Origin: a virus | Virus record (IMG/VR): IMGVR_UViG_3300025133_009446 | Location: 1-64,000 of that record | Length of the DNA: 64,000 nt | Strand: one strand, 5' to 3' | Part shown: positions 33,568 to 51,212 of the stretch, piece by piece | How positions within the stretch are numbered: the first letter of the stretch is position 1 | How the letters are laid out: every line of letters starts with the position of its first letter | Notes under the pieces: model-generated | Seen by the model: only the letters and a program-made list of their open reading frames with translations | What the model was told of the DNA's origin: nothing | The model's database searches: none | Translations under genes and position numbers: made by a program

Positions 33568-33876
33568 TTAGCCAGCCCCTTGTAGTATATCAAATAGCTC
33601 ATTTTTGTCTTTTTCAGATAAAGACTCAGAACCAGAACCAATGTTTTTCTGCATCATTGACGTTAGTTTAACTAATTGTTCATTTGATCTTTGTAGGGTT
33701 TCTAAGTATTTGGCGGCAATTAATCCCAAATCTTTATGAGACTCATAAGTAGAGGTTGGCGCTTGAAGTTCTGACATCACATCAGAAAGTAGTGTCGTTG
33801 TCCTATCTCTATCATCTCTTATATTGTTTATTGCCTCATTAATATAATTTTCTAATTTTGTTCTCCGTTGTCCCAT
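33568..33876 (-). CDS. Conserved hypothetical helical protein
   Basis: 102-aa ORF coupled to the sigma-like gene; KYLETLQRSNEQLVKL. Confidence 0.6.
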   Translation of the reverse strand: MGQRRTKLENYINEAINNIRDDRDRTTTLLSDVMSELQAPTSTYESHKDLGLIAAKYLETLQRSNEQLVKLTSMMQKNIGSGSESLSEKDKNELFDILQGAG

Positions 33877-34556
33877 TTAATTTTAAAGTCCTTATATTTA
33901 GATCTTAGCTTTTGCAGGTTATTAACAACTTGCTTTGTGTTCAAGCCTGTTATTTCCCTCAAATATAGATAAATAGCTTTTTTATTAAAAATCTCTATTT
34001 CATCGCTACTTTCAAATAAGATCTTTACTGCTTGCATAACTTTACGTTCATTCTCCTTTAAATGTTCAGAATCCCATTCAGAAAATTCTTTCCAAAACTT
34101 TTGCCAAAATTCAAAATCAGCTCTGGCTTTTAGATAAGGGTTATATGTAACTAAATTCGCATTCTCAACCAGTGCGGCGTTGTTGCTGTATGTTGAACGA
34201 TATTCTTCATAATCAACTTCCCTTCTATTTCTAGTGGCATTGAGCTTAACCTTGTGAATAAACCAATTTTTTGTAATTACACTAAAATATGAAAAAGCTT
34301 TTGAACCTTTATTGGGATCATATTTATCTAATATTGTGGTTAACCACACTTTGCAATCTTCTTTTAAATAATCTATATTAGGCAAGCTAGTGAACTTATA
34401 GGTGTACACTATTTTATCAACCAATTCATCAAACGCAGGACCAATTAAAGCAATATATAATTCAGATCTTCTCTTTTTGTCTTCTGTGTTGGCATATTCT
34501 ACAATTGCTTTTTCATGAACAGAGGTAAAATAATAATTAGACTTCTTTTTCCGCAT
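33852..34556 (-). CDS. Phage RNA polymerase sigma-like factor (T4 gp55-like, probably late transcription)
   Basis: 234 aa. Region-2-like KYDPNKGSKAFSYFSVITKNWFI and a C-terminal HTH-like IYLYLREITGLNTKQVVNNL. Confidence 0.7.
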   Translation of the reverse strand: MRKKKSNYYFTSVHEKAIVEYANTEDKKRRSELYIALIGPAFDELVDKIVYTYKFTSLPNIDYLKEDCKVWLTTILDKYDPNKGSKAFSYFSVITKNWFIHKVKLNATRNRREVDYEEYRSTYSNNAALVENANLVTYNPYLKARADFEFWQKFWKEFSEWDSEHLKENERKVMQAVKILFESSDEIEIFNKKAIYLYLREITGLNTKQVVNNLQKLRSKYKDFKIKWDNGEQN

Positions 34557-35117: not shown

Positions 35118-35357
35118 TTATTCCGATTGGGTGTCAACAGTGTCAAAATCAAATGATTGCTGTTGCAAATTCTCTTCAAACTCATCATTAAACTTAACCA
35201 ATGGCGGGTTCATAACTACCAGCCCCTGATCCGAGGTTCTAAATCTGAACTCTTTTAAAACAGGAACAATATCACTTTGCTCCATTAAGCTTTTCTGCAG
35301 AGCCATCATAACAGCCCCCACAGCCTGATCTGACATGTTTACTTCTCTATCGCTCAT
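35118..35357 (-). CDS. Conserved hypothetical protein
   Basis: Likely start MSDREV at 35357 after AAGGAG (track start 35393); SDQAVGAVMMALQKSLMEQSDIVPVLK. Confidence 0.6.
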   Translation of the reverse strand: MSDREVNMSDQAVGAVMMALQKSLMEQSDIVPVLKEFRFRTSDQGLVVMNPPLVKFNDEFEENLQQQSFDFDTVDTQSE

Positions 35358-36216
35358 TAATTTCTCCTTCTTTGCTAATGGCTCTACCTTCAAGCGCTTC
35401 CCAATCTCTTTCTGGGCGTACTTCCAAGTTTTTATTCCACGCAGCTTTTAATACCGCCGGATTTATATTTAGATTCTCTGCATATTTTATCATCGCATTT
35501 AAATCCTTTGGAAAGCACGAACCACCAAAACCAAACTTACCATCTGGACCTGGAACAGAAAAATGGGATCTACCTAAACGCTTGTCATATAAACCATATT
35601 CTACTATCTTATCATAGTCTACATTAATTTTTTCACATATTTGTTTGATTTCATTAGAAAAACTAACTTTGGTTGCAAGAAAACAATTGGTAAAATATTT
35701 CACCATCTCAGCTGTATTTGAACCAGTTTTCACCAATGTCGTTTCTGGAAATGCTTTTCTATAAAGATTTTTTACTTTTGTTGATGCTGGTCTAGGTCCA
35801 CCAATTATAATTCTTGTTTGATTTTTAAAATCTTCAACAAAATTTGCTTCAGTTAAAAATTCAGGATTAAAAATAACTTTCAAATTATTGCACTCTTGGT
35901 TAAACTTTTCAGTTGTCCCAGGAGGGACTGTAGATTTAATCACTGCAATATTGTCGTTATTATAACTATCCAACTTCATTATTGTGTCTGTTACAATAGA
36001 TAAATCACATACACCATTTCGCTTCATCGGTGTTGGAAGGCATATAAAAATTATACCAGCTTGTTGACTTAGTTGTTGCAAAGATGTACATGTTGATGCG
36101 CGTGCTTTGAACTTGTCATACGTATCAACATGTACACCACGGACACCCTTAAACCCTTCGTACACAGCTGTGCCAACAAAACCCTGTCCAACTATACCAA
36201 TATTAGTTTTTCTCAT
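35347..36216 (-). CDS. ugd: UDP-glucose/GDP-mannose dehydrogenase family protein (short form lacking the C-terminal domain)
   Basis: GQGFVG, ICLPTP, IKSTVPPGTT, FNPEFLTE, catalytic GFGGSCFPKD. Confidence 0.85.
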   Translation of the reverse strand: MRKTNIGIVGQGFVGTAVYEGFKGVRGVHVDTYDKFKARASTCTSLQQLSQQAGIIFICLPTPMKRNGVCDLSIVTDTIMKLDSYNNDNIAVIKSTVPPGTTEKFNQECNNLKVIFNPEFLTEANFVEDFKNQTRIIIGGPRPASTKVKNLYRKAFPETTLVKTGSNTAEMVKYFTNCFLATKVSFSNEIKQICEKINVDYDKIVEYGLYDKRLGRSHFSVPGPDGKFGFGGSCFPKDLNAMIKYAENLNINPAVLKAAWNKNLEVRPERDWEALEGRAISKEGEINER

Positions 36217-37101
36217 TTAAAATTCCCAAAACAACTTTTTAAAACATCTATCAACACCAGCTTCTGCACCGATTTCCGCCTTCCAACCTAAGTCTTGCAA
36301 AGGTAAAACATCTGCTAACGTTACCATGACATCGCCCTGTCTTTCTTCTATATACTCAAATGCAATATCGGTGAAGTATTTTTGAACAATATCCTTCACT
36401 TCATTTAAAGAAATATTGTCGCCAGTTCCAACATCAAAATGCGCTCCATTGAATTTATCGTCGCGCTCCATTGCAAATATGTTTGCACTGATAGCATCAG
36501 AAACGTGCAACATATCTCTTCGTTGTTCTCCGGTACCTGTAATAAAGGGAGTCTTGCCTTTTCGAATATATTTCATCCAATTCGCAATTGCAGTAGCATA
36601 TGGACCATCTGCTTCCTGATCTTCCGAATAAACATTAAAATAACGCAAACTAACAGTATCAATTCCATAAAGCTCTGAATAAAGCTTGCACTCCATTTCA
36701 CTAACTAGCTTTTGTAACCCATATGGGTTTGTTGGTCCATCTCCATCGCCAACAACTGATGAAGAACTAGAATATATTACACGCTTTGCGCCAACATGTT
36801 TTGCAAAATTAAGTATATTACTTGTACATAAAACATTATTTTCCATTGTTCGAACAGGGTTTTCCACACTATATGTTACCCTGGGAAAGCACGCTAAGTG
36901 AAAAATATATTCAGGCTTGAAATTAAAATAATGTGGGTGAAAATCTCCACGCATTGGTTCATTGTATTCGCGAAGATCTTTATTAATATCATGCCCCTCA
37001 AATAAATCAATTCCTTGCACTTCGTGTCCCAATTCTTGTAATGTTTCATACAAATGGGAACCAATGTATCCTCTATGTCCTGTTACTAAGCATCTAGCCA
37101 T
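36217..37101 (-). CDS. NAD-dependent epimerase/dehydratase (extended SDR)
   Basis: TGHRGYIGS, SSSS, YGLQK, LRYFNVY, GTGEQRRD. Confidence 0.9.
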   Translation of the reverse strand: MARCLVTGHRGYIGSHLYETLQELGHEVQGIDLFEGHDINKDLREYNEPMRGDFHPHYFNFKPEYIFHLACFPRVTYSVENPVRTMENNVLCTSNILNFAKHVGAKRVIYSSSSSVVGDGDGPTNPYGLQKLVSEMECKLYSELYGIDTVSLRYFNVYSEDQEADGPYATAIANWMKYIRKGKTPFITGTGEQRRDMLHVSDAISANIFAMERDDKFNGAHFDVGTGDNISLNEVKDIVQKYFTDIAFEYIEERQGDVMVTLADVLPLQDLGWKAEIGAEAGVDRCFKKLFWEF

Positions 37102-37934
37102 TTTTCTTCTCCTCCTTCAAAAAATTGTGGTGGCATATCCCAAAATTGTTTCGCGCTTTTAAGTCTGTTTTCTTGCAACACTACCTCATTGTTCAAAATA
37201 TATTTCTCATAATCTATAATTGGGTATACATCTAAGTAAGTTTTTAGCGATGCATTGTAAAACTTTGTATCTCTGCCTCTCTCTATGAAATTCTTTAATG
37301 CTAAAGAATGTACATTTCTCATCTGATGATTGATTTTATAAAGCTTTTCATGAGGAATATCTGCTCGATATGATTTGTCAAAATGATTTGGATCACTTTC
37401 GCTACCTCTATCGCCAGTCCAACCCAAATCTGCTCCAACAATCACAACCTCACTAAAACCCATGTGGTATGTTAATTGTAAAGCTAGATTCATTGTCGTG
37501 CCGGTTTTATCTATCCGTTCGACAATATCTGTAGAAAAACATGTTTCTGATATTCTACCATCCATGGGCGGTTTCCTCTCACTCATAGAATCAAACCAAT
37601 TAATATGCGGGTAATCATCATTTGAATCAATTGTGGGCTTAAACATTTTTGCAATAAAAGACGTCGTGTCTGATTCTTTCACAGCGTTACGAACAGAGCC
37701 TGTCCACGCCCTGCCCCACTCTGGGTGTCTAACATTAGTAGACGAAAACAAATAATACGTAGGCTTCCATTCTGGGTTTTTATCATATATAAGAGATATA
37801 CGATTCATAGCAATTGTATTTTCATTCTTAAGAAGGTTTAAATTCGTATTCGCCAAGCTTGGTCCATTGGCAATAAGAAATACTCTTTCGCCTTTATGTA
37901 AGTCCTTATACTTATCAAATACAGCATTTTTCAT
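37086..37934 (-). CDS. DUF115/Maf-like (GT42-related) candidate CMP-ulosonate transferase
   Basis: GERVFLIANGPSL, IAMNRI, ALQLTYHMGFSEVVIVGADL, DPNHFD. Likely start MKNAV at 37934 (track start 37961). Confidence 0.65.
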   Translation of the reverse strand: MKNAVFDKYKDLHKGERVFLIANGPSLANTNLNLLKNENTIAMNRISLIYDKNPEWKPTYYLFSSTNVRHPEWGRAWTGSVRNAVKESDTTSFIAKMFKPTIDSNDDYPHINWFDSMSERKPPMDGRISETCFSTDIVERIDKTGTTMNLALQLTYHMGFSEVVIVGADLGWTGDRGSESDPNHFDKSYRADIPHEKLYKINHQMRNVHSLALKNFIERGRDTKFYNASLKTYLDVYPIIDYEKYILNNEVVLQENRLKSAKQFWDMPPQFFEGGEEKWLDA

Positions 37935-37938
37935 GATA

Positions 37939-38625
37939 TTATTTTTCCCTTGAAGAAACAAGAATTGTTCTTTTATAATTTAAATGACTTTCATCATTAT
38001 AAAATGTATTGTTATTGAATCCTAATTCTTTCATTCTATTATTAACATATGTTTGTGTTGGAATTGAGTGAAGTTTATTATATTTATTAGATTTACTTTT
38101 ATGTCCCCCAGAGACACAAAGATCATCTAACGAATCGTATGTTTTAAACTCTAAGATTAATAAATTTGAAAGTTTAGACATTTTTTGTAAACATTGTAGC
38201 ACGTTTGGTATTCTATGTAATAATCCCAACCCTAAAATCATATCATAATTTTTGTTTTCTTTTAACTCATATAAATCCCCGACTTCAAATTGGACATTAT
38301 CAAGCTTAAATATTTGTTTTATGAAATTCGCCCTTTCGATTCTCAATGGATCTGGATCTATTCCAACAACTTGCATATCATAATCCATTGCGCATTTTAC
38401 AGAATAATAACCGTCGCTGCATCCAATGTCCAAAGCTTTTTTTCCTTTTAAATTTAACTTATCTATTATTGGATTTAATCTAGCCCATTTGTTGATATTG
38501 TACCCCGGACTATTAATATCGGTTTTTCTTGTTTTTATTAAACCTGGGAGATTATATTGATGATTCCAATCTTCCTTTTTGGATAAATCTGAGACTTTCT
38601 GTTGTATCCATTTATGATATTCCAT
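37939..38625 (-). CDS. Class I SAM-dependent methyltransferase (CmoB/DUF1698-like)
   Basis: LKGKKALDIGCSDGYYS, VVGIDPD, YDMILGLGLLHRI. Confidence 0.85.
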   Translation of the reverse strand: MEYHKWIQQKVSDLSKKEDWNHQYNLPGLIKTRKTDINSPGYNINKWARLNPIIDKLNLKGKKALDIGCSDGYYSVKCAMDYDMQVVGIDPDPLRIERANFIKQIFKLDNVQFEVGDLYELKENKNYDMILGLGLLHRIPNVLQCLQKMSKLSNLLILEFKTYDSLDDLCVSGGHKSKSNKYNKLHSIPTQTYVNNRMKELGFNNNTFYNDESHLNYKRTILVSSREK

Positions 38626-39283
38626 TTATATATCTCTCCATAATTTTTATAGCAACATACTCATCTAGAAAACCACTTGTAACAGATGGCCATTTATCAA
38701 CATTTTTAGAACTATATATTTTGCGCGGTGGTTCAATTCGGTTTTTTTTATCTCGCGGTTTCAAATGTTTCTGTTCCTCATAAACAACCGGTATGGGCAA
38801 ATCAGGAAATAAAGCAGACAATGTTGCCACACGATGATTGCCACTGACTACATAAAAATTTTTTCCTGTGTGATTCTCTAAAAAATATCCAGTAATATGA
38901 CCTTTTTTCCTATCTAAAAAAGCATCTGGCGTATACCCAAATTCTTTAATAGATAAGACAAGGTTTTTCATTTTATCTATTTGTGCATCAATAAATTTTT
39001 TATCTCGTCGCATAAAAGCAACATCCACAAACTCTGTGACGGGGCTTGTATGAATCCATGGAAGAAAAATAGATTTATAAGAATATCGCTTTAAATTTTC
39101 ACCAACGTTGTAAATGTCATATAGTGTCTTTAAATTAAAAGATTTATAATGATCATGCAAAACAGTATTCTCTAATGTTTGATTAGATTTTAGCAATTGC
39201 AACGCCGTTAAGTAACAAGGATTATCACCAATAGCAAATGGCAATCTACTTAAATTACATATTTCTTCTTTAAAAATCTTCAT
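38612..39283 (-). CDS. Hypothetical protein with a ParB/Srx-like motif
   Basis: LVLSIKEFGY...FYVVSGNHRVATL...IPV. Likely start MKIFKEE at 39283 (track start 39364). Confidence 0.5.
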   Translation of the reverse strand: MKIFKEEICNLSRLPFAIGDNPCYLTALQLLKSNQTLENTVLHDHYKSFNLKTLYDIYNVGENLKRYSYKSIFLPWIHTSPVTEFVDVAFMRRDKKFIDAQIDKMKNLVLSIKEFGYTPDAFLDRKKGHITGYFLENHTGKNFYVVSGNHRVATLSALFPDLPIPVVYEEQKHLKPRDKKNRIEPPRKIYSSKNVDKWPSVTSGFLDEYVAIKIMERYINGIS

Positions 39284-39722
39284 AGTTTTCAATATAATCG
39301 CTACATATCCCAACACATTGTTGAATATCTTCCTTTTTATATTGTGCGACTTCCGGAAGCACACAAATTGAACCTTTTAATATTCTCTTCTTAGGAAAAC
39401 CCCACATATATCCTTTAGATGTTAAAGTAACGTCATCTGTTTTGTGAAAAAAACAATGTATCTCTTGAGGTGGCCGAGGATTAATCAATTTCGCCAATGC
39501 TTCCGGATTTTTACAATGACACCACAGTTTATCGTTGTTTAAAAAAGAAATATTTATTTTATATTCAGGCTTGTCATGACCAAGATACAAGCAATTGTTT
39601 TTATACCAAACGTCTATCTCCACATTGTAGCCGGATTTCATAGCCTCTAAAATATAATCAGGAGAATTTTCTCTTTCTGGATTCTTGCCATTAACGTTGC
39701 CTCTGTGAGATATCAAAATCAC
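39270..39722 (-). CDS. Minimal glycerophosphodiester phosphodiesterase (PLC-like) domain protein
   Basis: ISHRGN, ENS, VEIDVW, LGHD, WCHCKN, GICSDY. Confidence 0.75.
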   Translation of the reverse strand: MILISHRGNVNGKNPERENSPDYILEAMKSGYNVEIDVWYKNNCLYLGHDKPEYKINISFLNNDKLWCHCKNPEALAKLINPRPPQEIHCFFHKTDDVTLTSKGYMWGFPKKRILKGSICVLPEVAQYKKEDIQQCVGICSDYIENYEDF

Positions 39723-40435
39723 TTATAGTTCTCCAAAAAAGATCTTAAATCTTCGGGAGTGCCAAGACCACACATCTTGTGCACATAAAATGGAATAAGA
39801 GTTTTGCCATCAGCTATTAACTCGTTATAAACTGGAGCTATATAAAACTCATTATTAACACGAATATCTTTTTCAATCATTTGTTCTGCATATTTTACAA
39901 AATCAGAACCATGGCGGTACCAATAAATCCCACATGTTGCAATATTGGATATTGGCTTTTTTTCGGCAACTTCTGTAATGAATCCTCTAGAGTTCGTTTT
40001 GACAAAAGACCATTTAGGGTGCACTGCATTAAAAGTAAATACCATTGCATCACAATTGGTTAAATTCTTCAATGATCTGAAGTTCTCTGACTCGTAATCA
40101 ACATATTGATCTGAATTAGCAATAAGTAAATCATCATCATTATTTATATATTCTCTAGCTAACAATGCGGTACATGCTGCACCCTCAGTTAATTTGTCAA
40201 CAACAAGATATTTAAAATTATTGTTTGTTATTTGTGAAAGTGTGCCCAACAAACCTTCATATTCTTCGACATGTTTTTTTCGAATCAAAAAAATATATTC
40301 ACAATCAAAATCTAAGTTTTCTACAACCTTTTGAATCATGGGCTTTCCATTAACATCAATAAGCGGCTTTGGGAAGGTGTAACCTTCCTTGACAAACCTA
40401 CTTCCTTCGCCAGCCATTGGAATCAATATTTTCAT
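39719..40435 (-). CDS. Sugar/polyol-phosphate nucleotidyltransferase (NTP_transferase, GT-A fold)
   Basis: IPMAGEGSRF, PKPLI, TEGAACT, NSDQ, VAEKKPIS, LGTPEDL. Confidence 0.88.
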   Translation of the reverse strand: MKILIPMAGEGSRFVKEGYTFPKPLIDVNGKPMIQKVVENLDFDCEYIFLIRKKHVEEYEGLLGTLSQITNNNFKYLVVDKLTEGAACTALLAREYINNDDDLLIANSDQYVDYESENFRSLKNLTNCDAMVFTFNAVHPKWSFVKTNSRGFITEVAEKKPISNIATCGIYWYRHGSDFVKYAEQMIEKDIRVNNEFYIAPVYNELIADGKTLIPFYVHKMCGLGTPEDLRSFLENYK

Positions 40436-41049
40436 TTTAAAACCTCTTTAAACAATTCAATTGTCACTTCATCAGCATTTTTAACAGAAATTACATGGCA
40501 TCCAGACTCTTTCGCTGCTTGTAAACCTTTGGGTGAATCTTCCACTATTATAGTGTTCTTGTTAGAAATATCAAGTTCTTTAAGTGTTTTTATATAACCC
40601 TCTGGATCTGGTTTAGGTTTTTCAACATCTTGATTGGTTAGTACCATGTCGAAATAATTCAAAATACCAGTTTTATCTAACATCATATATGCTGTTTCTC
40701 TAATGCTGTTTGTAAAACATGCGACTTTCAAATTTTTATCTTGAACCAACCATTCTAATAAATCAATTTTTTCTTGCCTAATTTTTGCATTGGATTCAAT
40801 AATTTCTTTCGTTTTTTCTTGTTTTAAATCATAAACATCTATATGCTCATCTTCACTTAATATATTTATCTCTGTGAGTGCTGCTAGTTTAACTTTTGTT
40901 GGAAGCCCATTATATTTGTTATAGTGGTCTTCTAAAGAAATTTCATAATTGCACACCTCTTTTAAAGCTTCGTTTAGAGCAACTCGATGCCACTCACATG
41001 CATCAACCAAGACACCATCTAAATCGAATATAACTAATTCAACACTCAT
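40432..41049 (-). CDS. HAD-family phosphatase (beta-PGM-like)
   Basis: FDLDGVLVD, TNS, KPKPDPEGY, VEDSPKG. Confidence 0.9.
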   Translation of the reverse strand: MSVELVIFDLDGVLVDACEWHRVALNEALKEVCNYEISLEDHYNKYNGLPTKVKLAALTEINILSEDEHIDVYDLKQEKTKEIIESNAKIRQEKIDLLEWLVQDKNLKVACFTNSIRETAYMMLDKTGILNYFDMVLTNQDVEKPKPDPEGYIKTLKELDISNKNTIIVEDSPKGLQAAKESGCHVISVKNADEVTIELFKEVLK

Positions 41050-41050
41050 A

Positions 41051-41944
41051 TTACACCAAATAATTTTTTAAATCTAGATTCTTTATATCCTTTTCGAAAT
41101 ACAGATATTTTATCACATTTTTAATGCGCGAGCTTCTTATATCCGGGGGATTGCTTATAAACTCGCCGCTCCAATTCTTTACCCAACCTTGCTTTGTGGG
41201 GTTAGATTTCCACGTTCCACTCCACTTTGTATAAAAATAGTTCCAAGAATATTCCTTATATATCCCACTTCGGGTTTTCCATATACTTTGATGCTCCGCG
41301 TCATCTGCTCTTCTTTTTAAAGTGTGATCACCAGCGAATCCAGGCTCTTCTATAAAATTCCTGTCGATAATGGTATCCAACTCTAACGCACTCTCATTGT
41401 TTAATTCTAAACCATGAAGCGTATCATTAATACATGATTTTTCCTTATTAAAAATAAGCGCCCTAATCCAGTAATCTGCTTCTTTATATTGCACACCAAA
41501 AAAGTTTTCATCCCACATGCCAATATTTTTAATAGCTTCAGGTGTATAGCTAACCAAATTGTCTCCATATTTTCCAACCACAAAATTAAACTTCTCATGC
41601 ATCTTCATCAGATTGCTATACCAATTAGGGTGCACCGATGTATCGTTCTGTAATGTAACCACATACTCACAATCAGGCTTATTAAGACTTTTAAAACCGT
41701 TGATTAAAGCTTGGTTCCAGTTTTCTGCTAGATTTCCATTTGACCAATCGGGGCGCAAAACATTGTGTAGTACGTTAACCTTGTTTTCATATTCTGGCTT
41801 TAAATAAAACTCAGAATGATTGTTAATAATATTAACCTCTGTATTTGGAATACTTGAAAAATCCGAAGCAAAAAGCTTCTCCAACGTATCATTTAGTATG
41901 TCAGAGCGCTTATAAGTCACAATATAGATTTTCATTTTTTTCAT
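41051..41944 (-). CDS. GT2-like glycosyltransferase
   Basis: IYIVTYKR, IINN, LQND, IGMWDENF...EADY. Likely start MKKMK at 41944 (track start 41962). Confidence 0.7.
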   Translation of the reverse strand: MKKMKIYIVTYKRSDILNDTLEKLFASDFSSIPNTEVNIINNHSEFYLKPEYENKVNVLHNVLRPDWSNGNLAENWNQALINGFKSLNKPDCEYVVTLQNDTSVHPNWYSNLMKMHEKFNFVVGKYGDNLVSYTPEAIKNIGMWDENFFGVQYKEADYWIRALIFNKEKSCINDTLHGLELNNESALELDTIIDRNFIEEPGFAGDHTLKRRADDAEHQSIWKTRSGIYKEYSWNYFYTKWSGTWKSNPTKQGWVKNWSGEFISNPPDIRSSRIKNVIKYLYFEKDIKNLDLKNYLV

Positions 41945-41945
41945 A

Positions 41946-42872
41946 TTATACAATCCCGGCAATTCTCAATTGCTCCATACAAGAATTCCAATTAGTAAAA
42001 CGGAACCCTTTATCATCAATATATGCCACCGCTCTTGGCTTTTCGGCTGTAACCTTTGTTACAAGCTTATCCATATCATATTTCTTAAGCCATTCCCACA
42101 CCAACTCTATACCAGTTTTACCATCTACCAAACCGCGATCAGGCTTTGCTTTACAGGTATACATGATAACATTGTATTTTTCAGACAACGCTTGCAAAGC
42201 CTCTCTAGAGCCAGGAACTGGTTCATCATAAATTGTTCCGTCATAGTACCCTTTTGAGCACTTATGAATCACACCGTCGAAGTCGATGCCGATTTGATAA
42301 GTTTCGTCATCATTAGAGTGAAGACGAGGGCTCGCGGGTTGTTCATTCGGAACGGTCTTTATCATTGGTGATTCGAACCCTGAAGCGTTCATTAATCGAT
42401 GAAAAAGCATGATGGTCAGCACTTCAGAAGAATAATAATGTGTTGCACCTGTTGATACTTCTATGCTACCCCATTCATTGTTGACCGATTGAGATGTAAT
42501 GTAACATGTATCACATCCGGTTGATGCTGCAAATATCAAGGCAGCATCAACATCGGGTGATGCTCCGGATGATGACACGCCGATGACTAACGGCATTTTA
42601 TTCGAATTAGAAAGTCGAGGTCTGAGCCATTCTATCAGCCACTTTTGATAATCAAAATCGCCATGCCAGATAGAAACTGTATCAGTATCTGGAGCACATA
42701 TTAATTTCTTGCCTCCAGTGAGCCTTGTAAGATCTGTAGCTATGTGTCGGCAAATCGACAAATTTCCGCCATGACATGCCAAGTATACTTCGCTGTGTCT
42801 TTCGAATAATTTTTCAATATCTTTCCACTCATCCGAGAGAATTGTTTTTTCATATAGATGTTCTACATTCAT
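41946..42872 (-). CDS. Fusion of a SIS (GmhA-like sugar-phosphate isomerase) domain and a capless HAD phosphatase domain
   Basis: VYLACHGGN...HIATDL, IGVSSSGASPDV (SIS). IGIDFDGVI...KP.AVAYIDDK (HAD). Confidence 0.75.
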   Translation of the reverse strand: MNVEHLYEKTILSDEWKDIEKLFERHSEVYLACHGGNLSICRHIATDLTRLTGGKKLICAPDTDTVSIWHGDFDYQKWLIEWLRPRLSNSNKMPLVIGVSSSGASPDVDAALIFAASTGCDTCYITSQSVNNEWGSIEVSTGATHYYSSEVLTIMLFHRLMNASGFESPMIKTVPNEQPASPRLHSNDDETYQIGIDFDGVIHKCSKGYYDGTIYDEPVPGSREALQALSEKYNVIMYTCKAKPDRGLVDGKTGIELVWEWLKKYDMDKLVTKVTAEKPRAVAYIDDKGFRFTNWNSCMEQLRIAGIV

Positions 42873-43762
42873 TGTTTGCTCTCTTTTCTCTTGTCGCTAA
42901 TCTCTCCTAGACAACCCACAAGACCAAGCCCAATATCAATATACTCTGATGCTAACATTTTTTTAGGAATATCTTCGCCATATTTATACGGAGTAGTTTG
43001 ATAATGTGAAGTAATCAGACTTTTATTTTTGCTTTGATTATATTTTATTTCCACATCTTTATTCATTATTTCAGATATAATTGTTAATATTCCTGATGTT
43101 CGAAACGATCGTTCGCCTGTAAGGATCATACAACGATTTTTATATTTAGAGCCTAAAGACTTTATAGTTAAGTCTGCTGCATCAGACGCATGAATATAAT
43201 CGCGGCGTTCGCACCCTGTCCCTTGATATGTTATTTTACCATCAAGGGCTTGATCTAAAAATCTATAAACACTGTTGTTTTTATCTGCGCCTGGACCGTA
43301 AATTGTTCCATATCTTAATATTGTATAGTTAAGATTATAATACTTCTTATAGTCTTTTGTAAGAGACTCACAGACATTTTTTGTAGAGCGATAAACTCCT
43401 CCTAAACCAGACTCAGAATAAACACTACTAGCCAAGACAAATCTATTTACTTTAGCTTTTGCACACTCATCTAAAATAATTGTGTTACCCAAAATATTTG
43501 TTTCTACTGCTTTAACTGGATCATCAATACATGCTTCAATATCTGCAATTGCTGCATAATTAAAAACTATATGCGCGTCTTTTACGATACTTCTAACATC
43601 TTCCCTGTTAAGAACATTTCCTACTATTGAATACTTCTTTTTTAGATCTGGTGAAGGAGCTTGATCAAATGAGTAGACAACATATTTGTTTTCCCTTATC
43701 AGTCTTCGTACTGTATATCTTCCAAGAAAGCCGGCGCCGCCAAATACAACTACTTTTTTCAT
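42869..43762 (-). CDS. NAD-dependent epimerase/dehydratase (extended SDR)
   Basis: GGAGFLG, ASS, YRSTK, LRYGTIYGP, RDYIHASD. Confidence 0.88.
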   Translation of the reverse strand: MKKVVVFGGAGFLGRYTVRRLIRENKYVVYSFDQAPSPDLKKKYSIVGNVLNREDVRSIVKDAHIVFNYAAIADIEACIDDPVKAVETNILGNTIILDECAKAKVNRFVLASSVYSESGLGGVYRSTKNVCESLTKDYKKYYNLNYTILRYGTIYGPGADKNNSVYRFLDQALDGKITYQGTGCERRDYIHASDAADLTIKSLGSKYKNRCMILTGERSFRTSGILTIISEIMNKDVEIKYNQSKNKSLITSHYQTTPYKYGEDIPKKMLASEYIDIGLGLVGCLGEISDKRKESKQ

Positions 43763-44757
43763 TATATAACCCTGTTAATCATATCTCTTGATTCAAGATA
43801 GTTGTTAACTGATTTTGCTGCGCCTACTTCCATTTCAAGCCTACTAATTTTTGAGCAACTCCCGAGATGAGGTGACATCAGAATATTATTAAGAGACAAT
43901 AGATTTCCATCATAGGGTTCTTTTTCAAAAACGTCAATTGATGCAGATGCGTCACTATTTTTTGTTAGCCAATCGTACAAAGCAGCTTCATCAACTATGC
44001 CGGCGCGAGACGTGTTAATTATGCATGCATTTTTCTTGAGCAATGATAGCTCTTTTGTTCCGATGTAACCTATGTTAGCTTCATTTAGTGGGATGTGCAA
44101 AGAGACGATATCGCACTCCGCTAAAATTCTATTTTTAGATGACCACTCGTATGAGGGAAATATTGCTCTAGATGAATCAGTGTCTGTGTACAATATTCTT
44201 TTTGGCTGTAGCGACTCCAGCTTTCTTAAGACTGATGTTCCTATTCTTCCAACCCCTATAATACCAATAGTACAGCTTGACAATTCTCTTCCGATAATTC
44301 GGGACCACCTGCCAGCCTTCATTTCAGAATCAACAATCCATGTTTTTCTTAGTAATGATATTATTTGCCCTATTGTTAACTCTGCGACTGCATTAGTAGG
44401 AGCATCTGGTGTATACGTTACACATATTCCTCTCTTTTTACATTCATCTAAATCAACAGAATCTAGACCAATTCCTACTCTGGATATCATCCTAAGATTT
44501 GGGCATGCGTCTAAAATGCTGACGTCATATTTTTCAGTTCCGGCAACAATAATTTCAGGCCGTTTATTCTGAAGTACTTGCAAAAGCTCTTCTCGCGAGT
44601 ATTTTCTTCCCGTTTCATTGTACGAGACTTTCATATTATTGTCTAGACACAGACGTTCCAACAATTCTCGGGGATCGCTATTTTTTGACCCATACGGAAA
44701 TGTCGTAACAACAATGTTTGACAATTTTTTGTCATCAATATTTTCAAAATCAAGCAT
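43762..44757 (-). CDS. D-2-hydroxyacid dehydrogenase (phosphoglycerate dehydrogenase-like)
   Basis: SRVGIGLDSVD, AVAE, GIIGVGRIG, INTSR, DVFEKEP, SPHLGS. Likely start MLDFEN at 44757 (track start 44781). No ACT domain. Confidence 0.88.
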   Translation of the reverse strand: MLDFENIDDKKLSNIVVTTFPYGSKNSDPRELLERLCLDNNMKVSYNETGRKYSREELLQVLQNKRPEIIVAGTEKYDVSILDACPNLRMISRVGIGLDSVDLDECKKRGICVTYTPDAPTNAVAELTIGQIISLLRKTWIVDSEMKAGRWSRIIGRELSSCTIGIIGVGRIGTSVLRKLESLQPKRILYTDTDSSRAIFPSYEWSSKNRILAECDIVSLHIPLNEANIGYIGTKELSLLKKNACIINTSRAGIVDEAALYDWLTKNSDASASIDVFEKEPYDGNLLSLNNILMSPHLGSCSKISRLEMEVGAAKSVNNYLESRDMINRVI

Positions 44758-45460
44758 TTTGCATTTCTTTATATGATTCAATTAAGGCAGTTGTATCCAT
44801 ACCCACTGCAATTATACCATAGTCATCATATTTTTTAATCTCTTTTTTAACATCTTTCGGAATGTGAACTGCCATTTTTTTGATTGATACCATATTTTTT
44901 ACCTTTTCTACCGCTTCTAGATACAAAGAGTTATTAAATTGTCCAGGTATACCAAGACTAGTAGACAAGTCATAAGGACCAATCATGTAAAAGTCAAAAC
45001 CCTTAATGTCGCCAATGTTTTCAACACCCCTTCTAGTTTCAATTTGAGCAACTATTATGGGCGGTTTTGCTATTAAAGCTTTATTATTTCCCCACTTGTT
45101 TTGTCTAACTAGTCCTAAGCCACGTCTACTAGAGGTTGCGTAACCTTCTTTACCATAAGCTACTGGGTATTTGCAATATTCATGAATTTGTTCGGCTTGT
45201 TTTCTAGTTTCTACTGTTGAAAAAATTAACCCAGTTGCCCCAGCATCTAAACAATATTTAACCATGTGTAGATCTAGATTTCCTAGTCGAACAAAGCACT
45301 GTTTATTGTTGGCTGTGACTATTTGTATACAGCTATATAACGTTTCATTATTAAAGCAACCGTGTTCAGTGTCGATTACAACACCATCTAATTTATTTTG
45401 ACAAAGTATATCAGATACAACAGTTGATGGTATTTGCTGCCATGCCAATCTCCTTACCAC
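44750..45460 (-). CDS. HpcH/HpaI class II pyruvate aldolase
   Basis: VIDTEHG, LDAGATG, YP...RRGLG, AQIET, IGPYDLS.SLG.PG. Confidence 0.88.
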   Translation of the reverse strand: MVRRLAWQQIPSTVVSDILCQNKLDGVVIDTEHGCFNNETLYSCIQIVTANNKQCFVRLGNLDLHMVKYCLDAGATGLIFSTVETRKQAEQIHEYCKYPVAYGKEGYATSSRRGLGLVRQNKWGNNKALIAKPPIIVAQIETRRGVENIGDIKGFDFYMIGPYDLSTSLGIPGQFNNSLYLEAVEKVKNMVSIKKMAVHIPKDVKKEIKKYDDYGIIAVGMDTTALIESYKEMQNA

Positions 45461-46146
45461 TATAAAAATCTCCTATATTTTTTTGTTTTGGTGCTGCTTT
45501 GTATTACGTTCACAAATTCCCAATCATCTTCAGTATCGATATCTAAGCTCTCCAAAAAACTTGTAGGATAAAAATATGGATTTTTACCAATTCTATTTCC
45601 ACTATTTAACACAATGTCGGAATAGAACATATAAAATAAAGAGTTCTCTTCATAATATACTGGTAGATCTTGTGTCTGTTGCAGAATCATTGGATTGTGA
45701 TTGACGGGGCACACACCGTATTCCTCTTTCCTCCAAAATCTTTTTTGAGTTGATATGCAAGAGGTGATAGAATCATATCCTTCATCAAACTTTTTCGCCG
45801 CTGCAGTTAGCGTTGCGACACCTAAAAACGGAGAAGTGACGTGAATCTGGCATATTATATCGTTTTCTACACTTTGTTGTTCATGAACAATGAAGTGTTT
45901 AATTAACTTACACACAGAAGTATTATGATCGACAAGCGCTGAGCTTCTTTTATAAGCAGTAACATGTGATAGGTTTTTATCTTTTTTTACTTCCTTGATG
46001 ATTTCTTCACTGTCTGTGTCAACATATACTTCAAAATCTTTTAGTTTATAAAGCGTATGTTTATATAACGGCAAATTTGCAAATAATCTAAAGTTCTTTT
46101 TTGGCACCCGTTGTGATTGCTCTTTTATTGGAATAAAAATTTTCAT
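45460..46146 (-). CDS. CMP-ulosonic acid synthetase (NeuA/KdsB cytidylyltransferase family)
   Basis: IPIKEQSQRVPKKN, VDTDS, HVTSPF, TQDLP, DIDTEDDW. Confidence 0.88.
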   Translation of the reverse strand: MKIFIPIKEQSQRVPKKNFRLFANLPLYKHTLYKLKDFEVYVDTDSEEIIKEVKKDKNLSHVTAYKRSSALVDHNTSVCKLIKHFIVHEQQSVENDIICQIHVTSPFLGVATLTAAAKKFDEGYDSITSCISTQKRFWRKEEYGVCPVNHNPMILQQTQDLPVYYEENSLFYMFYSDIVLNSGNRIGKNPYFYPTSFLESLDIDTEDDWEFVNVIQSSTKTKKYRRFL

Positions 46147-46892
46147 TTTATAGCATCACTAAAAAGCTTCTTGTCGAGCTTTTCTAAATTTAAAATCACA
46201 TCTAATACACTGTCTAATTTAACAGAAGGGTTGTCTCTCAAAGTATCTTTAGCATATTGCCATATGTTTTTTTGTACATGTCTCTTTGAGTTAAATGCCA
46301 TCGTAGCAAATTCATCTTCTGTTACGTTTTTTTCTTTTTCAACACCAGACTTACAGCCGGGTATAAAACCATCCAAATAAAAACTAAATCCATATATTGA
46401 CAACATGCTTGGATTAAAATTTAATAAGTCATATATTGCAAGAAATCCAGTATTTGGTCTACATTGAACCTTTTTTGCCAATTCTGTATGCATCTGATGA
46501 TCAACAATTCTAAGTGGTAATACTTTAATTATATGTTTAACAGTTTTCATATTAACCATCTCATGAAACGTTGTTCTTTGGGAGATCCCTTTATAATCAG
46601 ATTGTGGAGGGGCGCACACGAACTTAACACCATAATCATTTTTTAACTCAAGAACGTCTAACTTCCCAGCATTTTGTGCTGTTTCTATCAAACAAGAATA
46701 TAAAACATCGGTTTTTACCCCCACATCAGCTGAATATTGTTTAGTGGTTTCAATGCTTCTATTGATTCTAACAACCACGTCATGTTGATCAATTTCTTCA
46801 CCCAAACAAGAGCCAACCATATATTTTGCTGGACCGACCAAAGCAACTGTTTTTCCGTGTATAATGCTTTTAAAAAGAGAATTATCAATCAT
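46143..46892 (-). CDS. GT29 sialyltransferase-like glycosyltransferase
   Basis: Sialylmotif L: VALVG...LGEEIDQHDVVVRIN...DVGVKT. Sialylmotif S: PNTGFLAI...SIYGF. His near the VS position. Confidence 0.8.
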   Translation of the reverse strand: MIDNSLFKSIIHGKTVALVGPAKYMVGSCLGEEIDQHDVVVRINRSIETTKQYSADVGVKTDVLYSCLIETAQNAGKLDVLELKNDYGVKFVCAPPQSDYKGISQRTTFHEMVNMKTVKHIIKVLPLRIVDHQMHTELAKKVQCRPNTGFLAIYDLLNFNPSMLSIYGFSFYLDGFIPGCKSGVEKEKNVTEDEFATMAFNSKRHVQKNIWQYAKDTLRDNPSVKLDSVLDVILNLEKLDKKLFSDAIK

Positions 46893-47470
46893 TTTCTTTT
46901 TTTAAATATCCCAACCTTATTTTCAACAATGTTATAAAGATTCTCTTTGCCAAAAAAATGACTAGCATATTTCTCTTCAATAAGCCGACCCATATCATCA
47001 ACTACGCAAATACCATTATTCTTTAAAAGATAGTGTGCCGTATAAATGCTTTGCATCCTACCTGGACCTTTATATGGTCTAGGGGGGTTGTGTCCAAGAG
47101 GTCCGTCGACAAGAATCATATCCCACTCTATACTAGTAACTTCGTCTGGAAGCTTCATTTTAAGCTTCTCGATATCAAACCCAATATCAGCATGCTCTTG
47201 TGCTTTAGTATCGTACTTCACTGGATGTATTTTAATATTGACGTCTGGATCTTTAAATTTTTCAATCCATTCTAAATCATCCTCCAGAAACACAGTCTTG
47301 CCGCCAGCATTTATCTGCTCCCAAATATAAGAGTCCTCTCCTAATCCGAAAACTAAAAAATTACATGGAGACAATAAGTCCAAAACGTAACCAACATTCA
47401 TATATTGAGTCTGAGACATTAATCCCTTACCAGAAGCTTTCATATCTTTTATAAGCGTTTTAAAATTCAT
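46889..47470 (-). CDS. DUF579 polysaccharide O-methyltransferase (plant GXMT/IRX15-like)
   Basis: PCNFLVFGLG, GGKTVFLED, WDMILVDGP.G, PGRMQSIYTA match the hallmark blocks of plant glucuronoxylan methyltransferases. Confidence 0.8.
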   Translation of the reverse strand: MNFKTLIKDMKASGKGLMSQTQYMNVGYVLDLLSPCNFLVFGLGEDSYIWEQINAGGKTVFLEDDLEWIEKFKDPDVNIKIHPVKYDTKAQEHADIGFDIEKLKMKLPDEVTSIEWDMILVDGPLGHNPPRPYKGPGRMQSIYTAHYLLKNNGICVVDDMGRLIEEKYASHFFGKENLYNIVENKVGIFKKRK

Positions 47471-47471
47471 C

Positions 47472-48215
47472 CTAATATTCCATAAAGTTCTCTTTGCAAA
47501 TTTTTAACGCTTCATCAAGCGATTCAATTTCATATGTACCTTTGTTTATTCGTGGATCAGCATGCATGTGGTATATTCTTGGCGCAAGATGTTCTTCTCC
47601 AAACTCATGATGAAAAATATGTTGTTTTTCTCTATTCGCCTTACTTCTAATATTATATTCTACAGGGAAAACATAGAACTGTAACCCCTCTTGAATGGCT
47701 TTCCAAAGAGAAATTCTGAATGAAGCCTGATCCCAAGGACAATAATGCCGATAATGGTAAAAACACTCTCTCCAATCCTTAAAAAGCTTTAAGACTTTTT
47801 CGTTTTTCTTGAATACGAGCACGCCAGTATTAATTTCAGAAAACGCATAAGGAATATTTCTATACTCAGGCATGACAGTTGAATATTTCTTTCTTTTTCT
47901 CGCCAAATCATGAGTGCCGGCAAAATCAACGTTGTCTAGCAACTCAAACAGATCCTCTATGTTGCGATCAACTATAGTGTCTGTATCTAAAAACAACGTC
48001 TGCTCATAGGGAGTTAAAGCTATATAATCTATTTTAGGACGCAAATGAGCGACTTTAATTATCTTAACCTCATCAATATACTCAGACTCAATCTGTTTAT
48101 CTATAAACGCAGTTATGTGTAAGTCTGGATTATGTTTTTTAACAGACTCTGCAGAGAACAACATCTCTTTAATAAAATGCTTACCAAAAGCAATATACAA
48201 TACACCTTTATTCAT
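47472..48215 (-). CDS. GT-A glycosyltransferase (GT8/GT77-like)
   Basis: GVLYIAFG, TPYEQTLFLDTD, INTGV, DQASFR, EYN. Confidence 0.75.
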   Translation of the reverse strand: MNKGVLYIAFGKHFIKEMLFSAESVKKHNPDLHITAFIDKQIESEYIDEVKIIKVAHLRPKIDYIALTPYEQTLFLDTDTIVDRNIEDLFELLDNVDFAGTHDLARKRKKYSTVMPEYRNIPYAFSEINTGVLVFKKNEKVLKLFKDWRECFYHYRHYCPWDQASFRISLWKAIQEGLQFYVFPVEYNIRSKANREKQHIFHHEFGEEHLAPRIYHMHADPRINKGTYEIESLDEALKICKENFMEY

Positions 48216-49203
48216 AACTTATCCCCAATATGTCATTATACAATTTAGAAGCCCATGCATATGGACTATATAATTTATCAAATTCTCTCTTTGCGCGATC
48301 TGCCATTTTTTGCCTTAATCTAAAGTCTTGTAACTTTAATATACCTTTTTTCCAGCCTTCGTAGTTGTTTGCAATAATCCCGCATTCAGGATCACCCATA
48401 ATATGAAAATTACTAGGAGTAAAATCAGCAATCACAGGGATCCCCAATTGATGGAAAACAAAAGCCCTACCTGCATTAGATTTGTTTTTCATTCTCACTA
48501 TAAAATCCGTGTTATATAAACCAAGATCTGTAGAGGTTTTATGCTTGCTTAAGTCCAATGGTATATGAGTCACATTGGGAACAATACCAATATCGCAACT
48601 TAACAAATCTTGTTTTATGGTTTTAATGTTCCACGGTTTCATAATAATGTTTTCAATATTTGGTTTTCCAACCTTCCATTTAAATGATGTGTTGGACGTC
48701 ACAACAAACAATTCTATATCACACGCTTTGTTAACCTCTTCTATAGCTCTTTTAAGATTAGGCGCAAACTTGCTTAAATGCGGATAATGTCCATGAAAAC
48801 CTATCCTTAACCTAGATTTCTTAGAATGAGTTTTATAGTCATCGCCTTGATACATTTTTTCAATCAAAGGAAAAAGGAACACATTCTTATAATGAGATAA
48901 ACTATCCATCTCTTCTATGGAGCCAACAATTACAAAGTCTATTGGTAGGTTTCTAGCGTCGGCTGCCAAATTTATAACACCCACTTTCTTATTTGGATAT
49001 GCTTTCTTAATGCCAATGGCAGTTGCAACATCGTTTTTGCCGCAGATAACAACATCATAATCTAATACATCTGTCTTATTGGTTGCTATCTCAGATTGAT
49101 ATCCACAATCACGAAAATAATCATTTAAATCATTAACCCAAATTCTATAAGAACCAACGCTAATATCACGGTTGTTGGAAACAAACAAAACTTTCATAAT
49201 CAT
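48208..49203 (-). CDS. GT-B (GT4-like) glycosyltransferase
   Basis: GSYRI, IGFHG, DIGIVP, KSNAGR...LGIPVIAD. Confidence 0.7.
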   Translation of the reverse strand: MIMKVLFVSNNRDISVGSYRIWVNDLNDYFRDCGYQSEIATNKTDVLDYDVVICGKNDVATAIGIKKAYPNKKVGVINLAADARNLPIDFVIVGSIEEMDSLSHYKNVFLFPLIEKMYQGDDYKTHSKKSRLRIGFHGHYPHLSKFAPNLKRAIEEVNKACDIELFVVTSNTSFKWKVGKPNIENIIMKPWNIKTIKQDLLSCDIGIVPNVTHIPLDLSKHKTSTDLGLYNTDFIVRMKNKSNAGRAFVFHQLGIPVIADFTPSNFHIMGDPECGIIANNYEGWKKGILKLQDFRLRQKMADRAKREFDKLYSPYAWASKLYNDILGISYE

Positions 49204-50256: not shown

Positions 50257-51212
50257 CCTTTGTAGATTTTTAATGCCCAAAAGGCAGGATTTTCTATCTC
50301 TTTTTGCAGATCTGTTAATAACGCAGCGTGCAGCAATTCTCTATATTGTTCAGGATTAGAATTTCTTTTATCCCCCAAATTATCTAAATATATTGGCTTT
50401 GTAATGTAGTCAAAGTGCAATTTATTAGAAGCCTCTCCGCATATTTTATATAATTCTACATCACAATCACTAAACAAGTCAACTATTTTATTTATTGCAA
50501 AATCTCCATATTGTCTATATCCGTGCAAAAGGTATAAATCAAGAGAAGCTGGACCTGGGAAAAGGTGCACTTGTATACAAGGCTCGTCCTTTTGATACAT
50601 AAACTTCTTTAACTGCTTAAATGTACCTAAATCGTTTTTTATATGTTCAATCGCAGACTGAGACATGAGAAAGTTTATATTTGTTGGGATATCAAATATT
50701 GCATCACTATCTAGATTTGCCTGTTCGAAGCTTACATTAATATCCTTTTCCTTACCCCAGCTAATGTTGTCATGCCACTTAGGAGATTGATATATATCCA
50801 AGCCCTTATATGAAGTTATAATGCCATTAGACCAATTCTGCAGTTTCTTGCAATACCCACCGGTACCGCAACCAATATCCAATATATTGACTTCTCCTAA
50901 ATTTTTCTTTATATCACCCCAAGGCAAGTTCATCCAAAACATGTCACCCATAGCTCTGCTAGGTGATGGGGTACCCTTTATTTTGTTCCAAAAATTATTA
51001 AATTTTTCTTTTTCTAAAGTAAAGTCTGTGCTCAACAATTTATCTGTTAGCAATTTGTTGCTTATATGATTCCACAACAAATACAAAGTTTTTTCTGTTG
51101 AAGATAGTGAAGGACTATCTCCATTTATAGAGTGAATGGATGTCGACATGTCATCCTGTAGTCCGACACTATAATTTTCAATTAAAAAATTAAAATTGTT
51201 ATATTCTTTCAT
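50253..51212 (-). CDS. Class I SAM-dependent methyltransferase
   Basis: ILDIGCGTG, GLDI, SQSAIEHI. Confidence 0.8.
   Translation of the reverse strand: MKEYNNFNFLIENYSVGLQDDMSTSIHSINGDSPSLSSTEKTLYLLWNHISNKLLTDKLLSTDFTLEKEKFNNFWNKIKGTPSPSRAMGDMFWMNLPWGDIKKNLGEVNILDIGCGTGGYCKKLQNWSNGIITSYKGLDIYQSPKWHDNISWGKEKDINVSFEQANLDSDAIFDIPTNINFLMSQSAIEHIKNDLGTFKQLKKFMYQKDEPCIQVHLFPGPASLDLYLLHGYRQYGDFAINKIVDLFSDCDVELYKICGEASNKLHFDYITKPIYLDNLGDKRNSNPEQYRELLHAALLTDLQKEIENPAFWALKIYKG

Follow-up and report, generated by a model that had tools for sequence, protein, structure and literature searches.

A marine phage gene cassette, probably for an activated ulosonic acid, in which a pyruvate aldolase may take the place of NeuB or KdsA

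To our knowledge, the described routes to Kdo and to sialic, legionaminic and pseudaminic acids all need a synthase dependent on phosphoenolpyruvate (PEP). By what route, then, might a phage come by a sugar of this kind when it carries genes predicted to activate and transfer such a sugar, has an aldolase gene beside them and lacks any recognisable gene for such a synthase? This question is raised by seven genes at positions 41946-47470 of a 64-kb stretch of viral DNA (hereafter the window), which is the first 64 kb of the 75.4-kb IMG/VR record IMGVR_UViG_3300025133_009446. The record is a large myovirus-like phage whose baseplate wedge protein shares about 30% identity with its counterparts in Microcystis phage Mel-JY01 and Flavobacterium phage immuto, and its completeness is put at about 42% by CheckV. 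We propose that the seven genes belong to a phage pathway for a cytidine monophosphate (CMP)-activated 3-deoxy-2-ulosonic acid, in which an aldolase of the HpcH/HpaI family would carry out the carbon-carbon condensation in place of NeuB or KdsA, and we give this reading a probability of roughly 0.6.

The window has a GC content of about 35%, and its minus strand holds nearly all of the genes, among them the seven open reading frames (ORFs) of the run (E-values of the supporting matches in brackets; aa, amino acids; SDR, short-chain dehydrogenase/reductase):

46889..47470, minus strand: DUF579/GXM-type S-adenosylmethionine methyltransferase, 193 aa, soluble (Pfam IRX15_IRX15L_GXM 2e-34; TIGR01627 9e-33)
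46143..46892, minus strand: GT29-like (sialyltransferase-fold) glycosyltransferase without a membrane anchor, presumed CMP-ulosonate transferase (Glyco_transf_29 1.8e-12)
45460..46146, minus strand: NeuA/PseF-like cytidylyltransferase, a predicted CMP-ulosonate synthetase, clade A (CTP_transf_3 4.8e-14)
44750..45460, minus strand: class II metal-dependent pyruvate aldolase of the HpcH/HpaI family, the proposed condensing enzyme (HpcH_HpaI 4e-18)
43762..44781, minus strand: D-2-hydroxyacid dehydrogenase, like phosphoglycerate dehydrogenase (PGDH) or glyoxylate/hydroxypyruvate reductase (2-Hacid_dh_C 5e-44)
42869..43762, minus strand: extended SDR of the NAD epimerase/dehydratase/reductase type (Epimerase 1.6e-34)
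41946..42872, minus strand: fusion of a SIS (GmhA-like) domain and a small HAD-like domain (Pfam SIS weak, 0.007)

Five of the junctions overlap by 1-4 bases (42869-42872, 43762, 45460, 46143-46146 and 46889-46892), and the sole longer overlap measures 32 bases (44750-44781). A preliminary description of this DNA, made from its letters, had named seven overlapping and co-oriented genes with these identities, and the ORFs, Pfam and NCBIfam bear it out, the HAD half of the last gene being recognised from motifs. The observation is thus real and its interpretation as an aldolase cassette is partly supported; judged from its sequences, the cassette appears to be a genuine and widespread variant of the CMP-ulosonate pathways. 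DNA nearly identical to that of the cassette occurs in more than 20 marine metagenome samples and is therefore no assembly artefact. No RNA data set was listed among the sequencing runs that contain it.

The aldolase, on which the proposal turns, matches PF03328 above the cut-off at 4e-18 over residues 18-227, that is, over the whole barrel. It matches the HpaI model TIGR02311 at 2.8e-25, under the equivalog cut-off, and its matches in the PDB are HpaI, YfaU and GarL (1e-18 to 1e-12, with identities of about 28-30%). Its catalytic motif is intact: His33, Arg58, Glu141 and Asp164, which we take for the active-site residues of class II aldolases (the catalytic His and Arg and two acidic metal ligands), align with HpaI and YfaU and are invariant across 21 homologues. 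Marine metagenomes contain more than 1000 homologues, of which the best 120 are 56-99% identical to it, and the JGI annotation for homologues is 2-dehydro-3-deoxyglucarate aldolase. A score gap parts this subfamily, which has invariant positions of its own, from HpcH proteins in general, and it was encountered only on marine viral or metagenomic contigs, each of at most 214 kb. Two pattern scans of genome contigs, a method of low sensitivity, gave no cellular relative of the subfamily; Atlas lists feature-similar clusters from Pseudomonadota for the aldolase, for which cellular copies could not be confirmed. Among GenBank phage isolates there is no close homologue, the only matches being two Staphylococcus phage records at 28% identity.

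Neither NeuB (PF03102) nor KdsA (PF00793) was found by profile search in the whole 75.4-kb record. Since the record is a fragment, its viral relatives were searched as well, 28 loci having been found via the aldolase and 61 via the cytidylyltransferase. Among 52 distinct viral records with the aldolase a single one contains NeuB, versus 8 of 13 aldolase-free records with a distant CTP_transf_3 gene (Fisher p = 2e-6, a value which, like the co-occurrence counts given below, overstates the number of independent events because related records are not phylogenetically independent). The NeuB search itself works, being positive in control genomes and in those 8 of 13 HpcH-free phage records. KdsA was found in none of 31 aldolase-bearing viral records and NeuC (PF02350) in none of 37, and all three are missing from six relatives that are approximately 100% complete (G007, G010, G016, which has terminal repeats, G039, G046 and G047). 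The absence of NeuB and KdsA noted earlier for the cluster thus extends to the whole record and to these six relatives. A route of the Neu5Ac or Leg type, with ManNAc supplied by NeuC, was considered and rejected on the finding of PF02350 in 0 of 37 records. The sole record with both HpcH and NeuB, L070, contains three CTP_transf_3 genes; NeuB abuts the third, and HpcH lies near the first, which is of the window's clade, so that the record looks like a set of parallel acidic-sugar modules, each with its own condensing enzyme. In the same record (L070:1062-8475) the second CTP_transf_3 gene is followed by a gene for a 289-aa protein without a family match.

The aldolase gene also follows one form of the cytidylyltransferase gene from locus to locus. 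Where the cytidylyltransferase is at least 43% identical to that of the window, HpcH lies within 10 kb in 46 of 46 viral loci; where it is at most 34% identical, HpcH is present in none of 15. On 57 unique HpcH contigs, the cytidylyltransferase gene is adjacent to that of the aldolase in 22 and one gene away in nine. The HpcH contigs that lack a cytidylyltransferase gene end next to the aldolase, with the exceptions of L022, in which HpcH, a dehydrogenase and a CTP_transf_3 gene of another clade stand in a row, and L021, the only adequately flanked HpcH contig without a CTP_transf_3 gene. A GT29, a longer GT29-like or a Maf/MptE-like protein is encoded near HpcH in 45 of the 57 contigs, and the smallest loci retain the transferase, the cytidylyltransferase, the aldolase and some SDRs. 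Aldolase, cytidylyltransferase and sialyltransferase-like transferase therefore form a tightly co-inherited unit, as had been supposed, and these patterns are what is expected if the product of the aldolase is the substrate of the cytidylyltransferase and the SIS-HAD protein supplies or completes that step. The aldolase is put to another use in L021 (8220-12599), where it stands beside a thiamine pyrophosphate-dependent enzyme, a second HpcH-like gene, a 4Fe-4S protein and a DegT aminotransferase.

Two further enzymes would act after the aldolase. The cytidylyltransferase matches PF02348 at 4.8e-14, PseF at 6e-22 and KdsB at 5e-5, and its best match in the PDB is mouse CMP-Neu5Ac synthetase (CMAS, 1qwj; 1.8e-12, aligned over residues 10-211). 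Ser11, Arg13, Lys17 and Asn18 of the N-terminal CTP-binding region and the C-terminal acidic metal motif D202-x-D204 are invariant. It scores 78 bits with PseF against a cut-off of 206, and 22 bits with the KdsB models against cut-offs of 193-255, and on this evidence it probably represents a separate clade that is equivalog neither of PseF nor of KdsB; GenBank phage isolates contain no close homologue of it. The GT29-like protein scores 47.7 bits with PF00777 (cut-off 23) over profile positions 56-215 of 272, and a profile search of the PDB returned ST3Gal1, ST6Gal1 and ST8Sia3 (1e-5 to 1e-3) over residues 8-63, which cover sialylmotif L only. It has no hydrophobic segment, and GenBank phage isolates yielded only a 54-residue partial match to GT29. 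A CMP-ulosonate is presumed to be its donor. The plant GT29 protein RCKT1 is a putative CMP-Kdo transferase of rhamnogalacturonan II (RG-II) (PMC11288761) and bacterial GT29 sequences exist (PMC5811610), which together set a precedent for a GT29 enzyme acting on a non-sialic ulosonate.

The SIS-HAD protein is the tightest neighbour of the aldolase among its closest relatives, being encoded in 64 of the 80 metagenomic loci whose aldolase is closest to this one and in all 20 of those with 4 kb or more of flanking sequence to either side (the cytidylyltransferase in 18 of these 20). Its residues from 1 to about 170 form a GmhA-like sugar-phosphate isomerase domain of the SIS type, and a small HAD-like domain, a putative phosphatase, lies at about residues 190-308. 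A search of the PDB with a profile of ten SIS-HAD homologues returned phosphoheptose isomerases (GmhA) exclusively, at 1e-7, and an AlphaFold2 (AF2) model of the protein (pLDDT 82) matched GmhA in Foldseek with TM scores of 0.66-0.68. The SSSGxS phosphate loop of the SIS domain is invariant (S100-S101-S102-G-x-S105). We take the catalytic and zinc-ligand set of GmhA to be His, Glu, Gln and His; the phage domain conserves His43, the equivalent of the first His, Asp47, which stands for the Glu of GmhA, and Arg50, and at the C-terminal Gln/His pair the alignment is ambiguous. The C-terminal half had no match in the PDB sequence search and matches Hydrolase_6 marginally (E 0.038); its DxD...T...K...DD pattern, with invariant D197-x-D199, K278 and D286-D287, marks it by motifs only as a putative HAD phosphatase.

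From these parts we infer the direction in which the aldolase runs, its substrate, the class of sugar and the acceptor, as follows. The GmhA-like SIS domain would turn a ketose phosphate into an aldose phosphate, and the aldolase, running in the synthetic direction on this aldehyde as had been proposed for it, would join pyruvate to the aldose or aldose phosphate to give a 4-hydroxy-2-keto acid. The fused HAD domain would strip the phosphate before or after the condensation, and the NeuA/PseF-like enzyme would form the CMP-sugar, dephosphorylation and the release of pyrophosphate pulling the reversible aldol step forward. The soluble GT29-like enzyme, and perhaps a Maf-like one, would then move the sugar onto an intracellular acceptor. 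The identity of the sugar is not readable from the sequence: it could be a C8 Kdo-like, a C9 Kdn-like or a C10 heptose-derived acid, or an ulosaric acid.

The genes that follow the cassette on the minus strand, together with one farther along the same strand, bear on this pathway in different ways (NDP, nucleoside diphosphate):

41051..41962, minus strand: GT2-like glycosyltransferase that co-varies with the cassette (Glycos_transf_2 9e-5)
40432..41049, minus strand: HAD protein like beta-phosphoglucomutase (beta-PGM) or a sugar phosphatase (HAD_2 1e-33; matches to TM1254 phosphatase and beta-PGM)
39719..40435, minus strand: sugar-1-phosphate nucleotidylyltransferase (PDB 4evw 1.4e-18; RmlA matches)
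39270..39722, minus strand: member of a virus-only family, 150 aa, showing the GDPD-like motifs HRG, EN, EIDV and GHD (GDPD match in the PDB 0.0018; alignment)
37086..37961, minus strand: MptE/DUF115 (Maf-like) protein, a further candidate for the transfer of the CMP-ulosonate (MptE-like 3.5e-9)

The preliminary description had treated the seven genes as a complete unit. The genes are real, and the limits of the unit lie wider: the GDPD-like protein, the pair formed by the HAD protein and the NDP-sugar pyrophosphorylase, the GT2 enzyme and the Maf/MptE-like transferase co-vary with the cassette. In about half of the related loci the gene for the 150-aa protein is the one immediately upstream of HpcH. 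Atlas places this protein in clusters confined to viruses, GDPD being the nearest family with a name, and its AF2 model, with a pLDDT of 94, has no clear fold match in the PDB by Foldseek; it is possibly a phosphodiester or NDP-sugar hydrolase. The nucleotidylyltransferase and the HAD protein are a single gene in most relatives (a 456-aa fusion in L003) and accompany HpcH in 41 of 71 loci, and homologues of the GT2 protein at 44-77% identity are found in most related loci; both this pair and the GT2 gene co-vary with that for the GDPD-like protein. By analogy with the logic of PseG/PseI and LegG/LegI, the GDPD-like protein may free an aldose from a tailored NDP-sugar for the aldolase. In loci that lack GT29, an MptE-like gene usually lies two or three genes from those of the cytidylyltransferase and HpcH.

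If the GDPD-like neighbour could be a hydrolase, the aldolase might likewise be thought to break down rather than to build, cleaving an ulosonic or keto-deoxy sugar acid of the host to redirect carbon or to block the envelope, with no more than a loose tie to the glycosylation genes. It is established knowledge that the characterised relatives HpaI, GarL and RhmA/YfaU are catabolic lyases. This explanation has difficulty, however, with translational overlaps that embed the aldolase in a biosynthetic island and with its strict co-inheritance with an activating enzyme and transferases, and it leaves the scarcity of NeuB (1 of 52) and the absence of KdsA beside a complete set for activation and transfer unexplained; we judge it very improbable.

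A stronger rival is scavenging, and some of the points that weigh against an aldolase-based synthesis speak for it. The completeness of the record, at about 42%, and the shared ancestry of its relatives temper the evidence given above, and class II pyruvate aldolases are known above all for catabolic, reversible reactions. No gene that would supply the aldehyde is universal, the SIS-HAD protein being missing from about half of the viral loci. In many related loci the immediate neighbours of HpcH are the GDPD-like gene and the HAD/NDP-sugar pyrophosphorylase, with the cytidylyltransferase 5-8 genes off (in loci of the L003 type the genes flanking HpcH are the GDPD-like one and the HAD/NDP-sugar pyrophosphorylase fusion, and the distance is 5-6 genes), so that HpcH could serve a different branch of the glycan pathway. 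Any Gram-negative host, moreover, makes free Kdo that a phage cytidylyltransferase could use. The cytidylyltransferase and the GT29 protein might then act on an ulosonic acid of the host, most simply on free Kdo from KdsA and KdsC, while the aldolase, the SIS-HAD protein and the dehydrogenase work in another branch, possibly adding pyruvate to an NDP-keto-sugar to give a branched sugar or making a small acid substituent. The island contains other nucleotide-sugar enzymes that such a branch could involve (a UDP-sugar dehydrogenase (UGDH), SDRs and the NDP-sugar pyrophosphorylase), and the aldolase of L021 occurs without any CTP_transf_3 gene. What scavenging does not readily account for is the co-occurrence of the aldolase with one cytidylyltransferase clade in 46 of 46 loci and the fact that the two genes are neighbours, or nearly so, in 31 of 57 contigs, the retention of transferase, cytidylyltransferase, HpcH and some SDRs in minimal loci, and the near mutual exclusion of HpcH and NeuB as partners of CTP_transf_3 in phages; nor would a phage in want of CMP-Kdo only have any need for a divergent enzyme like NeuA or PseF. 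We regard scavenging as unlikely, while giving it real weight.

Returning to synthesis by the aldolase, the dehydrogenase had been expected to help supply its aldehyde, an expectation that the wider survey does not uphold, since the dehydrogenase and the SDR form a lineage-specific two-gene insert and are not part of the core. They separate HpcH from SIS-HAD in the window, and elsewhere these two are usually adjacent; both inserted genes occur as close homologues in one other viral locus only, L027 (dehydrogenase 57%, SDR 54%). The dehydrogenase matches PF02826 at 5e-44, PF00389 at 6e-22, PGDH at 1.7e-59 and glyoxylate reductase at 2e-51, and its translation shows a GxGxxG motif (GIIGVGRIG) and the Arg/Glu/His set (TSRAG, FEKEP, SPHLGS); that of the SDR shows GxxGxxG and YxxxK. 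A gene of the dehydrogenase family adjoins HpcH in the window, L022, L027 and L073 and is fused to GT29 in L014, L015 and L018, which indicates that the dehydrogenase acts on the pathway, as an accessory. The fusion protein (L014:6831-8429, also in L015 and L018) is 532 aa long, and its lineage includes a complete 200.8-kb genome with terminal repeats. Both enzymes are thus candidates for add-on tailoring in the window's lineage; the dehydrogenase could supply hydroxypyruvate as an alternative donor, or oxidise or reduce the hydroxy-acid end of the sugar.

The methyltransferase at the other end of the run is likewise optional, and travels with a block that includes two genes upstream of it:

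47472..48215, minus strand: GT8/GT77-like transferase (Nucleotid_trans 6.7e-6; Glyco_transf_8 6e-5)
48208..49203, minus strand: unannotated 331-aa protein (unk331) that travels always with GT29 and DUF579

Methylation of the ulosonate had been suggested for this gene. Its identity as DUF579 stands (the match to PF21729, in two stretches, reaches 119 bits, the cut-off being 27.8), and its place in the core of the cassette does not: DUF579 was found only in loci that also hold the GT8-like gene, unk331 and GT29. The only substrates of DUF579 enzymes known to us are glucuronic acid residues, and a UDP-sugar dehydrogenase is encoded in the same island, while the complete relative G016 has DUF579 without UGDH. 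The optional nature of the gene, its known substrates and the UDP-sugar dehydrogenase make methylation of the ulosonate an even bet at most, and the enzyme may equally methylate a uronic acid placed by its GT8-like neighbour. The four-gene block at 46143-49203 (minus strand), whose members invariably occur together, recalls the plant wall families GUX/RGXT, GXM and RCKT1, all four proteins being soluble here. The UDP-sugar dehydrogenase (35347-36216, minus strand) is a short form of 289 aa without a match to the C-terminal UDP-binding domain, and its relatives are similarly short (262-284 aa).

Onto what, then, would the sugar be transferred? The cassette is part of a larger glycosylation island beside tail genes, which spans the genes from 35347 to about 55429 and contains, besides the cassette, the short UDP-sugar dehydrogenase, a second SDR, the Maf/MptE-like protein, methyltransferases, the sugar-1-phosphate nucleotidylyltransferase, the beta-phosphoglucomutase-like HAD protein and transferases of the GT2, GT4 and GT8/GT77-like kinds. 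Hydrophobic or transmembrane segments were found in no island protein, nor was a flippase, a polymerase or a polyprenyl-phosphate transferase found among these proteins; with an island thus free of membrane proteins, the glycan must be built on a cytoplasmic acceptor, and a virion protein of the phage is the likeliest one. The solubility of all the island enzymes would also suit phage DNA, the acidic sugar then forming part of a base hypermodification, and there is precedent in phage glycosyltransferases that can put Kdo and heptose on 5-hydroxymethylcytosine and whose clusters can lie near structural genes (bioRxiv 10.1101/2023.12.21.572611). A hydroxymethylase of the thymidylate synthase type was, however, not found in five complete relatives, and about nine glycosyltransferase-like genes with several methyltransferases suggest a complex glycan, so that DNA seems to us an improbable acceptor. 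(A search for TET/JBP was blank in the relatives, as was its positive control, and carries no weight.)

Three other features of the window may be recorded here. A 234-aa protein without a Pfam match (33852-34556, minus strand) is conserved immediately downstream of the island in many related phages, where small conserved ORFs and structural genes come after it. A tmRNA gene was called by ARAGORN at 60677-60991 (minus strand), with the tag ANDNVELDYALAA. A tRNA-Tyr(ATA) call at 51098-51182 (plus strand), antisense within a methyltransferase gene, is probably spurious.

A bolder version of the aldolase-based pathway, which taken as a whole we hold to be doubtful, is that the sugar is made by no known CMP-pathway, is partly O-methylated and coats the phage's own virion proteins. 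It might then be a C10 3-deoxy-ulosonic acid built from D-glycero-D-manno-heptose that the GmhA-like domain supplies, or a Dha-type ulosaric acid, or, where a lineage has the dehydrogenase, a Ko-like, 3-hydroxylated acid formed from hydroxypyruvate. If this were true, the phage genes would provide the first candidate enzymes for the making of Dha in plants and scaly green algae, in which the GT29 and DUF579 families also occur. Our literature searches, of incomplete coverage, found neither a natural aldolase-based route to a CMP-ulosonate nor an earlier description of the unit, in agreement with the claim of novelty first made for it. Such a route, if real, would replace the PEP synthase by a non-orthologous enzyme and open a new supply of CMP-sugars to glycoengineering. 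Among ocean phages the cassette is plentiful, with hundreds of metagenomic homologues, and the island could reveal acidic-sugar coats on marine phage particles, with a bearing on host recognition, on stickiness and on the decay of viruses at sea. It also offers a directly testable system of three or four enzymes.

Among known systems the closest in chemistry is the CMP-Kdo pathway, which consists of KdsD (arabinose-5-phosphate isomerase), KdsA (Kdo-8-phosphate synthase), KdsC (a HAD phosphatase), KdsB (the cytidylyltransferase) and a Kdo transferase. The phage cassette would share with it the order of the chemistry, the SIS isomerase, HAD phosphatase and CTP_transf_3 folds (three of the four soluble steps) and the proposed class of product, a 3-deoxy-2-ulosonic acid. 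It differs in that its condensing enzyme is a pyruvate aldolase of the HpcH type and not the PEP-dependent KdsA, its SIS domain is GmhA-like, not KdsD-like, and is fused to the HAD domain, its activating enzyme scores far better with PseF and NeuA than with KdsB, and its transferase is GT29-like and not WaaA (GT30). The nonulosonic acid pathways (NeuB/PseI/LegI, NeuA/PseF/LegF, sialyltransferases or Maf, and a Kdn-9-phosphate route with a HAD phosphatase) resemble the cassette in the NeuA/PseF-like activator, in the GT29-like and Maf/DUF115-like transferases and in the tailoring SDRs and methyltransferases nearby. The cassette in contrast has neither a synthase of the NeuB family nor a hydrolysing epimerase of the NeuC type, and the proposed donor, pyruvate and not PEP, would make the condensation reversible and in need of a pull by later steps.

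With HpaI, GarL and RhmA (YfaU) the phage aldolase shares its fold and conserved positions, and the reversible joining of pyruvate and aldehydes to 4-hydroxy-2-keto acids is a reaction of theirs, whereas its genes stand in a biosynthetic context and not in an operon for the degradation of aromatic or sugar acids. The last comparison is with the plant proteins RCKT1 and the DUF579 enzyme GXM, from which the phage proteins differ in being small, soluble and without a Golgi anchor, and in that DUF579 is optional. What the two have in common is a GT29 enzyme, which in the plant probably uses CMP-Kdo (PMC11288761), an O-methyltransferase for acidic sugars and a GT8/GT77-like neighbour.

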